Positions 11,961 through 16,033 of a stretch of DNA of 37,161 nt are shown here, piece by piece. Every line of letters starts with the position of its first letter. Position 1 is the first letter of the stretch. The DNA is from a virus. A program made the position numbers and the translations under genes. Location of the stretch: the UHGV virus genome UHGV-0110762; one strand, given 5' to 3'. The notes under the pieces were generated by a model. That model had not been told where the DNA came from, did no database searches, and was given only the letters and a program-made list of their open reading frames with translations.

Positions 11961-12791
11961 ATGAATCTGGACAATGTTTTAAAGTTTTTTGCGCCTAAAG
12001 GCATGCACATATCAGATACCAGTAGAGCGACAGCCAGTGAACAACTGACGGTTACTGATGTAATGGCTGCATTGGGGATGACTCAGGCCGATGCGGGGAT
12101 CGGGCTGGCAATGTTTTTAGGTAAAGCTGGTATCAGCAGCCAGGACAGAGAGGCGTCAATAACCTGGCTAACTGAGTACGCGAAAGAGCATGCGCCCATG
12201 GCCATTCGCAAAGCATCAGGGAAAAAGTTTCCCCTCTGCATGCGTATCCTTGCCCGGTTTGCCTATAACGATTATTCCTCATCAGCAGCTGATTGTGTGG
12301 CATGCCCAAAATGTAGTGGTAAAGGGTTGCTTACAACCACTAAAACCGTGACTAAAAGCCATTACACAATGCGATTGCCACAATGGGCAAAAGACCTGAG
12401 ACAGTCACCATCTGACTTTGAGGTAAAGCGAGAAGTAACTGACTCCGAGCAAAGTTTATGTTCGCGATGCCATGGTACCGGAAAGTTAAGTAAGCGATGC
12501 CAGTGTGGCGGAACTGGCAAGACGGTTGACCGTAAAGCGACAGAACTGCAGGGCGTACCAGTTTACAAAGAATGTAAGCGCTGCGAAGGGCGGGGATACA
12601 GCAGGCCAAAATCATCGGTTGCCTATCGAGGTGTTTTTTCTGAGTTGCCGAGTCTGCCTGACCGAACGTGGCGTTATAGCTGGAAACCATTCTATGAAAG
12701 CCTGGTGACCAAATGTTTCCAGGAGGAGAGTTATTCAAGCTCTCAACTGAATCGGGTGACTAAAAGTGAAGATGTGATAAATATCGCGTAA
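11961..12791 (+). CDS. Putative late-gene antiterminator (Q-like by position) with four DnaJ-type CxxCxGxG zinc-finger repeats
   Basis: ATG 11961 with GGAGA RBS; CPKCSGKG, CSRCHGTGK, CQCGGTGK, CKRCEGRG repeats; lies directly upstream of a strong promoter plus short-transcript terminator and the lysis genes, the position of lambda Q. Confidence 0.45.
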   Translation: MNLDNVLKFFAPKGMHISDTSRATASEQLTVTDVMAALGMTQADAGIGLAMFLGKAGISSQDREASITWLTEYAKEHAPMAIRKASGKKFPLCMRILARFAYNDYSSSAADCVACPKCSGKGLLTTTKTVTKSHYTMRLPQWAKDLRQSPSDFEVKREVTDSEQSLCSRCHGTGKLSKRCQCGGTGKTVDRKATELQGVPVYKECKRCEGRGYSRPKSSVAYRGVFSELPSLPDRTWRYSWKPFYESLVTKCFQEESYSSSQLNRVTKSEDVINIA

Positions 12792-12834
12792 TTTAGCGTC
12801 ATGATGTTTGCAATGTTGCCGTATTTGTGTATAT

Positions 12835-12862
12835 TTGACATCAATGATGGGCTTTGTATAAC
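12835..12862 (+). promoter_or_regulatory. Strong sigma70-type promoter (TTGACA-16 bp-TATAAC), candidate late promoter pR'
   Basis: Perfect -35 TTGACA at 12835-12840, 16-bp spacer, TATAAC at 12857-12862, 44 bp after the Q-like gene stop. Confidence 0.55.
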
Positions 12863-12880
12863 TATCGATCACTATGATAA

Positions 12881-12903
12881 CCTCACCTCGGTGGGGTTTT
12901 TTT
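12881..12903 (+). terminator. Rho-independent terminator (candidate tR') about 20-35 nt downstream of the promoter
   Basis: Hairpin CCTCACC-TCG-GTGGGG followed by TTTTTTT; promoter plus immediate terminator is the arrangement Q acts on in lambdoid phages. Confidence 0.5.
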
Positions 12904-12914
12904 ATGGTGATAGT

Positions 12915-13451
12915 ATGGAACTGACTAAAGAAAATGTTGCATTAATTGCTGCTTTGGGGATTTTTGTGGGTACATTGATAACTTCTCTTACAAGTTACCT
13001 CCAGAACAGTAGTAGGCAGTCGCATGAGTGGCGCTCAGAAAGAAATAGAAGGAAAATTGAAAAGGGTGAACAGCTTTATGAGGCATTAATACTTTATAAA
13101 AAATTGCTTTTTGCCAATCATATGAGCTGGATAAATTGTATTGATGGGTGTTTTAAATCTGAGGACATTGGCGATAAATCAGACGAAATTCTCAGTAAAA
13201 ACCCTGAGTATAAAGGAGTTGGTGATAGAATTATTTTAATCTCTGGTGTTTATTTTCCTGAGATTAGCGTTATGTTTGATGAATCTAGAAAATTGCTGAA
13301 ACCAGCCAATTCTGTTTTCTTCAAAATACAGTCAGGTGAAGTTGACGATAAGAAATTGGCGAAGAATATAATTCTAAACGCTGGTCATAATTTTGATAAG
13401 GAGGCTAATAAAATGTTGGACTGTTTATCGAAAGAGATTAGATCGTTGTAA
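12915..13451 (+). CDS. Moron: membrane-anchored hypothetical protein (179 aa, one N-terminal TM helix)
   Basis: AT-rich codon usage distinct from surrounding phage genes; N-terminal hydrophobic segment VALIAALGIFVGTLITSLTSYL followed by a charged soluble domain; between tR'-like terminator and holin. Confidence 0.5.
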   Translation: MELTKENVALIAALGIFVGTLITSLTSYLQNSSRQSHEWRSERNRRKIEKGEQLYEALILYKKLLFANHMSWINCIDGCFKSEDIGDKSDEILSKNPEYKGVGDRIILISGVYFPEISVMFDESRKLLKPANSVFFKIQSGEVDDKKLAKNIILNAGHNFDKEANKMLDCLSKEIRSL

Positions 13452-13469
13452 CAACTCAAAATTAACGAA

Positions 13470-13493
13470 GGTCACCAGATGGTGGCCTTTTTT
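13470..13493 (+). terminator. Rho-independent terminator after the moron gene
   Basis: GGTCACCA-GA-TGGTGGCC hairpin followed by TTTTTT. Confidence 0.6.
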
Positions 13494-13539
13494 ATTCCCC
13501 TCGTTCTGAGAGGACTCACAGCAATAAAGAGGGGGCTAA

Positions 13540-13926
13540 ATGTCCGATCCGATTTCCGGTACTGGGCTGGCTGGTGGTGTCCTGACGGGAGCTAGCGTCT
13601 ATGGATTTCTGTCCGGAACCGATTACGGCGTGGTGTTTGGCGCATTTGCCGGAGCTGTATTTTACATTGCAACAGCTGCGGACCTTAGTGCAACGCGTCG
13701 GCTGGCGTATTTTGTCGTGTCCTACATCGCCGGGATCATCTGCTCAGGGCTGGTGGGTTCAAAGCTGGCTGACTGGACTGGTTACAGTGATAAGCCTCTG
13801 GATGCCATCGGTGCCGTAATCGTTTCGGCTTTAGCTGTCAAAATCCTGACGTTCCTGAACAACCAGGATGTCGGCTCGCTGGTGGCGCTGATAACGCGCC
13901 GGGGAGGTTCAGGTGGTACTAAATGA
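13540..13926 (+). CDS. Holin (multi-TM small membrane protein)
   Basis: AGAGGGGG RBS; 128 aa with several Gly/Ala-rich hydrophobic helices; first gene of the lysis cassette upstream of the endolysin. Confidence 0.6.
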   Translation: MSDPISGTGLAGGVLTGASVYGFLSGTDYGVVFGAFAGAVFYIATAADLSATRRLAYFVVSYIAGIICSGLVGSKLADWTGYSDKPLDAIGAVIVSALAVKILTFLNNQDVGSLVALITRRGGSGGTK

Positions 13927-14194
13927 CCCATCGGCAACAATCAATGCGCTTCTTTGCGCTGGGGTAGTGCTGACCCTGATGTTTTACCGTCGCGGTGACT
14001 CCAGACATCGACCGTGGATATCTCGCTTAGCCTGGCTGCTTACGGTCATTTATAGCGCCGTACCGCTGGCGTATCTGTGCGGTATCTACCCTTATTCATC
14101 GTGGGCCACTATCGGGGCCAACATTATTTTCCTGTCCGTGCTGGTCGCCGTCAGAGGCAACGTGGCACGCCTGGTTGATCATCTGAGGCAATAA
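13913..14194 (+). CDS. Second small membrane protein of the lysis cassette (holin or antiholin-like)
   Basis: 93 aa with 2-3 hydrophobic helices; overlaps the holin stop and the endolysin start (TAATG). Confidence 0.5.
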   Translation: MVLNDPSATINALLCAGVVLTLMFYRRGDSRHRPWISRLAWLLTVIYSAVPLAYLCGIYPYSSWATIGANIIFLSVLVAVRGNVARLVDHLRQ

Positions 14195-14808
14195 TGAACC
14201 AATCACAATTTCAGCAGGCGGCTGGTATCAGCGCCGGGCTTTCTGCACGCTGGTTTCCGCACATTGACGCGGCAATGAAAGAGTTTGGAATTACAGCGGT
14301 TAATGATCAGGCTATGTTCATTGCACAAGTCGGGCATGAGTCTGCTGGCTTTACTTCGTTGGCCGAGAGTTTTAACTACTCGGTTGAAGGGCTGAAGAAA
14401 ACCTTCGGTAATCGCCTGACATCGTATCAGTGTGAAATGCTGGGGCGTGTTGATGGTAAACAGGTCGCTCACCAGCCACAAATAGCCAATCTGGTTTACG
14501 GTGACCGCATGGGGAATAACAGCCAGGGTGACGGCTGGAAATATCGCGGTCGTGGCCTGCTGCAAATCACTGGTCGTGAGAACTACACCAAATGCGGTAC
14601 GGCGCTAAAGCTTGACCTTGTGAGCACTCCGGAACTATTGACGCAAGAGCGACACGCGGCCCGTTCGGCGGCATGGTACTTCACGTTACGCGGTTGTCTC
14701 CTCTATTCGGGGGATGTGGAACGCGTCACGCAGATTATTAACGGCGGGCAGAACGGCATTAAAGACCGCCGTGAACGTTACGCCAAAGCTAAAGCCGCAC
14801 TGGTGTGA
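14194..14808 (+). CDS. Endolysin, glycoside hydrolase family 19 (chitinase-like lysozyme)
   Basis: Motifs FIAQVGHESAGF, NYxxxxxxxxG, GRGLLQITGRENY typical of GH19 phage endolysins. Confidence 0.8.
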   Translation: MNQSQFQQAAGISAGLSARWFPHIDAAMKEFGITAVNDQAMFIAQVGHESAGFTSLAESFNYSVEGLKKTFGNRLTSYQCEMLGRVDGKQVAHQPQIANLVYGDRMGNNSQGDGWKYRGRGLLQITGRENYTKCGTALKLDLVSTPELLTQERHAARSAAWYFTLRGCLLYSGDVERVTQIINGGQNGIKDRRERYAKAKAALV

Positions 14809-15501: not shown

Positions 15502-15942
15502 TTAATAGGATATTTTATCGGAAGACTTGAGCGCTTTTAATGTAGCTTCAAGTATATCGAGAAATAGATCAACATCTTCATAATCATAAGATGGATTAGG
15601 TTTGTACTCCCCAATGTAAACCAACCCATTTTTACCTAAAAAGAAGCTAATTACTTCCTTGTTATTTTCATCAGTTGAGTCAGTTGCAACGAACTTCAAA
15701 AGAGGGGCTTCATTGATGACTACCAGTTTCTCATTGAAAACGAGTTCTAACCCATATGTTGAAAGTTCTAGGGTTAGTCTGTTTTCTGCATCTTGATTGA
15801 AAATCAAGGTGTTAGAAGTTAAAGAACTTTCTTTGCATGAGTCAATAACGTTTTTCTTAAGTTTGATTGCTTTTTCATCTAAAGCCTTTTTGTGTTCTGC
15901 ACACTTAATAACCTTACGGACGTCTAAATAGTCGATGCTCAT
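15502..15942 (-). CDS. Moron: hypothetical acidic protein (146 aa), opposite strand to the late operon
   Basis: ATG 15942 with AGAGG RBS; strongly AT-rich; no TM segment; no recognisable motif. Confidence 0.5.
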   Translation of the reverse strand: MSIDYLDVRKVIKCAEHKKALDEKAIKLKKNVIDSCKESSLTSNTLIFNQDAENRLTLELSTYGLELVFNEKLVVINEAPLLKFVATDSTDENNKEVISFFLGKNGLVYIGEYKPNPSYDYEDVDLFLDILEATLKALKSSDKISY

Positions 15943-16033
15943 AATTAAACCTCTTATTGATGAGTTAATAAACATTGAGCCATTAAGGCCAATATCAATA
16001 CTAAAGAATGAGAAAGTTTAAGTTATTAGAGTT

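Follow-up and report, generated by a model that had tools for sequence, protein, structure and literature searches.

A rare cargo gene abutting the late terminator tR' of a lambdoid phage encodes a predicted single-pass inner-membrane protein

The window examined here, the whole 37,161-nucleotide stretch of virus genome UHGV-0110762, carries an AT-rich gene for a small membrane protein between the gene of a lambda-type Q antiterminator and the holin genes of the late operon. Judged by alignment with lambda and P22, the promoter and terminator that precede this gene are the phage's own late-control module, PR'/qut/tR', which travels with Q and not with the gene. The explanation that accounts best for the data overall, and that we put forward tentatively, is that the gene is cargo placed in the Q/PR'/tR' slot, is read through tR', and serves as an inner-membrane accessory in phage competition. 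The order of Q, PR', tR', cargo, terminator and holin follows the familiar Stx-type arrangement, with a late switch homologous to that of lambda and P22; the new elements are an undescribed small protein family and the very tight, conserved junction of its gene with tR'.

The late-control module and the route of expression

An earlier note on this DNA had read TTGACA and TATAAC, separated by 16 nucleotides (nt), as a promoter serving the gene. Both hexamers are present and their combination is unique in the window (0.06 expected), but the TTGACA falls within PR', between its -10 element and its start site, and the pair is not kept in homologous leaders whereas the upstream PR' is. We aligned the region with lambda (43800-45600) and with the whole P22 record, and found the module of the window collinear with both, base for base, across the -35 and -10 elements, TTGAC(T/A) and AAYGATGG(G); its qut core aligns with lambda TTGACTCAACGATGGG and P22 TTGACTCAACGATGG. 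The -35 element TTTGCA (12807-12812) corresponds to lambda TTGACT, with a 17-nt spacer in both, the -10 element TATATT (12830-12835) to TAAATT, the hexamer TTGACA between the -10 and the start site (12835-12840) to TTGACT, and the pause element AATGATGGG (12843-12851) to AACGATGGG. Lambda AACGAT is a -10-like sigma-dependent pause element, and the Q-binding element of lambda lies between the -35 and the -10 (PMC4914094, the source also of the general PR' architecture used here); by analogy, the Q-binding element of the window would lie in its own -35/-10 spacer, the sequence of which is not conserved with that of lambda. The P22 record annotates P_late (37852-37880), a start site at 37887 (the first A of AACGAT), a qut site and t_late (37917-37945), giving a leader of 58 nt. 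The hairpin in the window stands at the equivalent position, with a leader of ~60 nt running from a start at ~12843 to an end at ~12903; the lambda leader, the 6S RNA, in contrast measures 193-194 nt. The lambda TTGACT just upstream of AACGAT is reportedly a -35-like site to which sigma region 4 binds within the Q-engaged complex (work ascribed to Nickels and colleagues, Mol Cell, 2002).

The Q proteins are homologous as well. Q of the window aligned with the lambda Q structure 7ubm (E = 3e-44) over both halves, from M11 of its open reading frame (ORF) onwards, and RefSeq annotates the identical coding sequence. It amounts to lambda Q with an insert of ~60 residues between the halves, which holds extra CXXC pairs and gives a DnaJ-type zinc-ribbon match. 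Given this insert and a -35/-10 spacer unlike that of lambda, the DNA specificity of the protein probably differs from that of lambda Q.

Comparison with relatives separated the module from the gene. In Escherichia coli PCP07014, a close relative whose Q gene has 75% DNA identity in its 3' part, the same promoter recurs with TTGACA and AACGATGGG, followed by a hairpin with compensatory changes and by no gene before the holin. Among six related leaders that we compared, the upstream -35/-10, the pause element, the hairpin and the run of seven T were all kept, and AAYGATGGG or AACAATGGG was found in every one. TTGACA, by contrast, is replaced by ATGTTT, ATTTTC or GTTTTA in three gene carriers, EC43, L024 and L025; TATAAC occurs in EC43 without an upstream TTGACA, and other leaders have TATGTC, TATACC or TGTGTG in its place. 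TATAAC also does not end in the conserved T of a -10 element and was not called by the promoter scan. The stem of tR' is maintained in relatives by double changes (A-U to G-C, C-G to U-A), so that the site combines a terminator, compensatory changes and a P22-like position; Q would presumably override it. The hairpin and T-run that the earlier note had given to the gene exist, but they are not the gene's own: they are tR', aligned with P22 t_late and kept in the gene-less PCP07014. Since the module aligns with lambda and P22 and stays in PCP07014 without the gene, the proposed promoter is a chance-looking overlap of parts of PR', and the proposed terminator is tR'. Rfam gave only sub-threshold matches, namely istR over the PR' leader region (window 12775-12902; 22.9 bits against a gathering cut-off of 45, E = 0.044) and Phe_leader (23.2 bits against 55), both of which we took as chance.

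The start codon of the cargo gene lies only 11 nt past the T-run of tR', too short a distance to hold a separate promoter. Each transcript of the gene would thus start at PR' and cross tR'. On induction, Q would make RNA polymerase ignore both terminators and expression would be strong; in a lysogen there would be at most weak expression, from leakage through tR', and the second terminator would shield the lysis genes from that leakage. Q-dependent read-through from the late promoter, which the earlier note had named as the route for cargo at this position in Stx and other lambdoid phages, fits this anatomy. A moron has been defined by foreign composition, its own promoter and its own terminator (PMC3594210). 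The gene was called a moron in the earlier note, and it has the composition (GC content 0.345 against ~0.50 in the backbone), the absence from PCP07014 and a terminator of its own, but not the promoter, the only one upstream being PR'. Because the promoter-terminator pair is the phage's PR'/qut/tR', the unit lacks the own promoter of a classical moron. Likewise, no consistent promoter was found in the copies that occupy the slot between lysis and terminase genes, where a single 10/12 match (in L027) was seen and counts were at chance level.

The leader RNA adds a possible second layer of control. The segment 12842-12914 folded with a minimum free energy of -27 kcal/mol (z = -5.0), which none of 200 shuffled sequences equaled, and an outer stem formed by AUCACUAUGA and UUAUGGUGAU encloses tR' and covers the Shine-Dalgarno sequence. 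RNAalifold predicted the same outer stem for seven leaders, with most pairs kept and some broken in L024 and L025, the two most divergent. This suggests a stem over the ribosome-binding site that would probably dampen translation. The stretch 12866-12911 is identical in L015, although synonymous sites of the gene are saturated between the two loci (proportion of synonymous differences, pS, 0.78). An ATG abutting the T-run of tR' (window 12904-12924) opens a six-codon mini-ORF, MVIVWN*, that is collinear with the true start (MVSIW...) of more distant members (L027 4001-4015; L025 4990-5010). The family has two N-terminal types, set apart by a 5-nt indel after TGG and by a T/A change from which the present ATG arose; the start codon has thus shifted by 11 nt, with the former start persisting as the Shine-Dalgarno region.

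A rare gene of foreign composition beside the lysis cassette

The block 12750-13500 has a GC content of 0.33-0.38, against 0.50-0.56 on both sides, and the cargo gene has flanks of 0.52 and 0.49; it lies between Q (PF03589, 7ubm) and holin genes (PF16931, PF05449), in keeping with the foreign AT-rich block that the earlier note had placed there. The region holds six terminator-like sites where 1.1 are expected, and tR' and the terminator that the earlier note had seen behind the gene (Table 1) both fold strongly. The gene-less relative remains homologous up to ~12907; on the other side, hundreds of prophages that carry other cargo match again from 13469-13495, within the second terminator. These limits define a cassette of ~560-590 bp (~12908 to 13469-13495) that is essentially one AT-rich gene and the 5' half of the second terminator. 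In L010, this 5' half accompanies the gene into a different backbone. A terminator stands 15-60 nt past the stop codon in the window and in L010, L015, L016, L026, L030, L034 and L038; most copies thus have one directly downstream, where it affects only polymerase unmodified by Q.

Other cargo occupies the Q-to-holin slot in relatives (L002-L005, L024, L030 and L034): a DUF6602 protein, HicA/HicB, N6/N4 DNA methylases, a universal stress protein (UspF) and several ORFs of no known kind. Such other cargo can also run on the opposite strand. In the Q-to-holin slot, each of these genes has a terminator behind it with the common 3' half GGCCTTTTTTATTCCCC, and the terminator seems, from these shared sequences, to be a recombination joint. 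The view that the gene is horizontally acquired cargo in a Stx-type slot is borne out by its foreign composition, its presence in only 2 of 5426 complete E. coli genomes, the same module without the gene in PCP07014, and the other cargo at the same junction.

Each of the 12 prophage contexts shows the gene on the late strand, immediately next to the lysis cassette. It lies upstream of the holin in eight (the window, L007, L010, L015, L016/L017, L024, L025 and L026) and after the spanins, before HNH/terminase genes, in four, which belong to more distant members (P0011, P0020, P0028 and P0030). The L027 copy is embedded between the genes for the o-spanin and HNH/terminase; no terminator follows it, and only 22 nt separate it from the next late gene. 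The Q genes upstream are of three kinds from two Pfam families: the 276-aa lambda type and a 250-aa YdfT type at 37% identity (both PF03589), and a PF06530/DUF1133 type. The holin partners fall into four families (holin_8 with holin_3_7, holin_3_1, holin_3_3, and holin_2_1). Proteins 62-90% identical to that of the window stand beside three unrelated holin families, and a 34%-identical homologue accompanies the fourth (P21 S type); the 90%-identical protein itself adjoins a lambda-S-type holin and a T4-type lysozyme, not holin_8 and GH19. Since the gene adjoins unrelated Q and holin types, a partner specific to one holin or one Q is unlikely, and we rejected a holin-specific regulator in view of these unrelated neighbors. 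An i-spanin was rejected as well, as spanins are already present and the predicted topology is the opposite one. Searches of the window protein against the lysis families of Pfam and PHROG gave no holin, antiholin or spanin match, and no homologue proved to be a known holin-associated lysis regulator, the outcome that the earlier note had named as fatal to its reading.

Downstream of the cargo gene, the lysis cassette of the window is complete, with spanin-like ORFs following the genes in Table 1. A second AT-rich block (15502-15975, GC 0.32-0.37) occupies the other classical cargo slot, from the spanins to the packaging genes; its 157-aa ORF, on the opposite (-) strand, had no Pfam or PHROG match and a marginal PADLOC match to PDC-M24A (E = 0.011). 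In the closest E. coli relative of this region (VREC0761; L001 8391-12761), another antiterminator gene comes after the lysis cassette, along with three tRNA genes and a further holin-lysozyme cassette, and this late region looks like one of tandem or recombinant make-up.

Table 1. Features of the late-control region and its surroundings in the window
Feature	Position	Strand	Details
Q antiterminator gene, lambda-type	11961..12791	+	276 aa (831-bp coding sequence); PF03589 3e-46; PHROG 127 4e-93
Late promoter PR'	12807..12835	+	-35 TTTGCA/TTGCAA 12807-12813, spacer 16-17 nt, -10 TATATT 12830-12835; from promoter scan
qut core	12835..12851	+	TTGACA 12835-12840, start site ~12842-12843, AATGAT pause element then GGG 12843-12851; putative function, by homology
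TATAAC (proposed as a -10 in the earlier note)	12857..12862	+	~+15 to +20 of the PR' transcript; read from sequence
Extended leader stem	12868-12877 with 12902-12911	+	predicted to enclose tR' and cover the Shine-Dalgarno GGTGA 12906-12910
tR', intrinsic terminator of the ~60-nt PR' leader RNA	12879..12903	+	8-9 bp stem 12879-12898, seven T 12897-12903; position as annotated P22 t_late
Cargo gene, 178-aa bitopic membrane protein	12915..13451	+	transmembrane residues 8-26; cytoplasmic four-helix bundle, residues ~40-177 (predicted)
Second terminator	13467-13496	+	stem 13467-13490 (10 bp), six T 13488-13493; at the right junction with the holin-upstream backbone
Holin pair, first lysis genes of the late operon	13540-13926 and 13913-14194	+	PF16931 2e-34; PF05449 8e-20; PHROGs 198 and 217, both 'holin'
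GH19 endolysin	14194-14808		after the holin pair

The family is small. A word-indexed search of 5.8 billion cluster representatives (~15 billion proteins) returned seven clusters, and among 1.84 billion proteins there were 39 representatives at E <=1e-3 and 13 at E <=1e-10, of ~150-215 aa and mostly 170-190 aa apart from a few fragments. The family occurs on seven IMG/VR contigs. None of 50,697 phage records matched the cargo block (DNA, megablast) or the protein (tblastn), a search for related loci in GTDB species representatives returned no relative, and literature searches found no paper on the protein family. Broad family alignments were too divergent for pattern searches. Every member at E <1e-10 with readable context belongs to a lambdoid prophage; the weakest homologues (E 1e-6 to 1e-3) are found outside prophages and are possibly not true members. 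All 12 enterobacterial prophage-borne homologues that we compared share the low GC content (0.33-0.38, with flanks of 0.48-0.58), and one weak non-phage homologue (L032) has a GC content of 0.45.

Despite its rarity, the gene is real and under purifying selection. The ratio of nonsynonymous to synonymous substitution rates (dN/dS) between the window and L010 was 0.21 at a dS of 0.23, other estimable pairs gave ~0.1-0.3, mostly near saturation, and the reading frame was intact in every copy; motifs are conserved across 29 sequences, and the predicted fold is confident. Decay of a non-functional ORF kept by chance in a recombination-prone spacer, which rarity, AT-richness and the lack of a known domain might suggest, is therefore extremely unlikely.

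The predicted membrane protein

The ORF that the earlier note had described is present, although its product is 178 and not 179 aa long. A 216-aa gene call that starts at 12801 is an artefact, as homologues begin at MEL. The claim of a single N-terminal transmembrane (TM) helix stood: residues 8-26 (Kyte-Doolittle 2.19) form the sole hydrophobic helix, with no second hydrophobic segment. Across 29 family members, lysine and arginine residues flanking this helix numbered 14 on the N-terminal and 90 on the C-terminal side, which argues for an N-out/C-in topology with the bulk of the protein in the cytoplasm. AlphaFold2, run with an alignment of seven sequences, gave a model with a predicted local distance difference test score (pLDDT) of 88.5 and a predicted template modeling score (pTM) of 0.74, in which the TM helix runs into helix 1 of a four-helix bundle. 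Together, the topology and structure predictions for which the earlier note had called point to a bitopic inner-membrane protein that exposes a very short N-terminus to the periplasm and joins its only TM helix to a four-helix bundle in the cytoplasm, a picture that is partly shown and otherwise predicted.

Within the 29 sequences, the invariant or near-invariant residues are E52, in a KGEELY motif, and P115, in a YFP motif in which Y113 and F114 are nearly invariant; these motifs are kept down to ~20% identity. The helix order of the model would place E52 and Y113-F114-P115 at the end of the bundle nearest the membrane. Scans of the window protein and the 29 family members against Pfam, PADLOC, PHROGs and NCBIfam gave nothing above threshold, in agreement with the earlier finding of no recognizable domain; a profile search against PDB sequences gave nothing below E 0.5, and a search of a viral structure library with the protein model gave nothing significant. 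RefSeq names the protein "HemY N-terminal domain-containing protein". The match behind this name (HemY_N, PF07219) scored 17.5 bits against a cut-off of 31, covered residues 8-50 only, that is, the TM region, and was found in 1 of the 29 members; the name is an over-annotation. The fold also recalls 4HB_MCP and histidine-kinase sensor domains, but at 6-12% identity. Such sensor domains stand in the periplasm, with a TM helix on either side and signaling modules attached, whereas the bundle of the window is predicted to be cytoplasmic and has a single TM helix and no output module. This resemblance in fold is a generic one.

Possible functions and their meaning

An accessory role in phage competition at the inner membrane, either excluding the DNA of incoming phages or interfering with a rival phage, ranks first among the roles considered, by analogy, though it is open to doubt. 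Such a factor would act via a membrane component of the host or of a phage, not via the Q or holin of its own phage. The profile of the gene (prophage cargo, membrane-anchored, sporadic, of foreign composition) fits such a role, and the terminator behind it implies some transcription by polymerase unmodified by Q. HK97 gp15 and P22 SieA (PMC3594210) are precedents for the role, and neither is related to the window protein by sequence. HK97 gp15 is a moron product and resembles the window protein in its foreign composition, its place on the same strand of the late operon before a terminator, and its single pass through the inner membrane (PMC3594210), but it has 62 aa and its own promoter, while the window protein, at 178 aa, includes a large cytoplasmic domain and its gene lacks a promoter of its own. 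P22 SieA and SieB are prophage-encoded, membrane-associated exclusion proteins of lambdoid phages and of similar size (164 and 192 aa), but their genes are annotated with promoters of their own and occupy other places in the genome, and they show no sequence similarity.

Several points weigh against this explanation. PADLOC gave no match to the window protein and only scattered single matches (E ~5e-3) among the 29 members, and hhalign returned probabilities of 0.9% against P22 SieA, 0.4% against P22 SieB and 0.8% against HK97 gp15, so that a role in exclusion or defence is plausible only by analogy. A four-helix bundle is too generic to indicate an activity. Leakage through tR' in lysogens is an assumption, and TTGACA/TATAAC could fire as a weak secondary promoter. 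Furthermore, the lack of an own promoter, the occluded ribosome-binding site and the embedding of the L027 copy without a terminator fit a purely lytic-cycle function better than one that protects the lysogen.

Such a function, in which the protein is an accessory made only with the late genes and acts in lysis or assembly, is the most serious of the alternatives, if a somewhat unlikely one. It might tune lysis timing through membrane energization or a host membrane protein, or might protect the infected cell from superinfection or host abortive infection until lysis. All 12 prophage contexts flank the lysis cassette on the late strand, and as the first gene after tR' its transcript would be abundant late; no own promoter was found in the lambda-Q contexts, the ribosome-binding site is occluded, and the L027 copy lies between the o-spanin and HNH/terminase genes without a terminator. 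However, the flanks of the lysis cassette are classical cargo hotspots (the Stx and bor positions), and adjacency therefore says little. Near-identical proteins beside unrelated holins and endolysins make a specific holin partner unlikely, lysis cassettes are complete without the gene, the gene is very rare and compositionally foreign, and the terminators downstream of most copies suggest transcription by unmodified polymerase too.

The stem over the ribosome-binding site gives rise to an improbable variant, in which the tR' hairpin is the core of a longer stem that hides this site, and the protein is a new Q-gated late exclusion or anti-rival effector encoded by a single gene, held very low in the lysogen and released on commitment to lysis. 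If true, it would be distinct from the classical superinfection-exclusion (Sie) or abortive-infection (Abi) proteins expressed in lysogens.

Lysogenic conversion of another kind is improbable as well. Here the protein would benefit the host in a matter that has nothing to do with phages, for instance tolerance of envelope stress or some membrane process, and would be made at a low level from tR' leakage. Unrelated host-benefit genes, for example that of the universal stress protein, occupy the same slot in relatives, weak homologues outside prophages stand beside housekeeping or toxin-antitoxin genes, and one family member has a marginal ZapG-like match. The lambdoid-prophage location of all members at E <1e-10 with readable context speaks against this reading, however, and the non-phage members are at the edge of significance.

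Very unlikely, finally, is an autonomous moron, in which TTGACA-16-TATAAC is a constitutive promoter of the gene's own and its transcript is attenuated by the hairpin (12881-12903). The -35 is perfect, the -10 matches at 5 of 6 positions, the 16-nt spacing completes a pair found nowhere else in the window, and TATAAC is kept in several gene-carrying loci. But TTGACA is the counterpart of the lambda/P22 TTGACT inside PR'/qut, is missing from three gene carriers and recurs with the hairpin in the gene-less PCP07014, TATAAC lacks the critical final T, and a transcript started at ~12869 would meet the hairpin 10 nt later anyway.

In position, the gene resembles stx of lambdoid phages, which shares the Q-to-holin slot and the orientation, has no promoter of its own and depends on PR'/Q read-through (PMC8065619). 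The window product differs from the secreted AB5 toxin in being a predicted membrane-anchored cytoplasmic bundle, has no obvious benefit from release at lysis, and is not accompanied by tRNA genes. In P22, the leader is followed by ~300 nt of non-coding DNA before the holin, unlike in the window, where the gene follows tR' so closely.

The gene is, for now, one more hypothetical cargo gene. Nevertheless, the analysis corrects two likely annotation errors, the HemY name in RefSeq and the 216-aa call that runs through PR' and tR', and it describes a protein family confined to the two cargo slots that flank the lysis cassette. The tight junction between gene and tR' offers a clean model for comparing terminator leakage in lysogens with expression by Q antitermination only. 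As the Q-to-holin slot carries Shiga toxin, its other cargo, and how that cargo is expressed, matter for prophage biology and for competition between phages.

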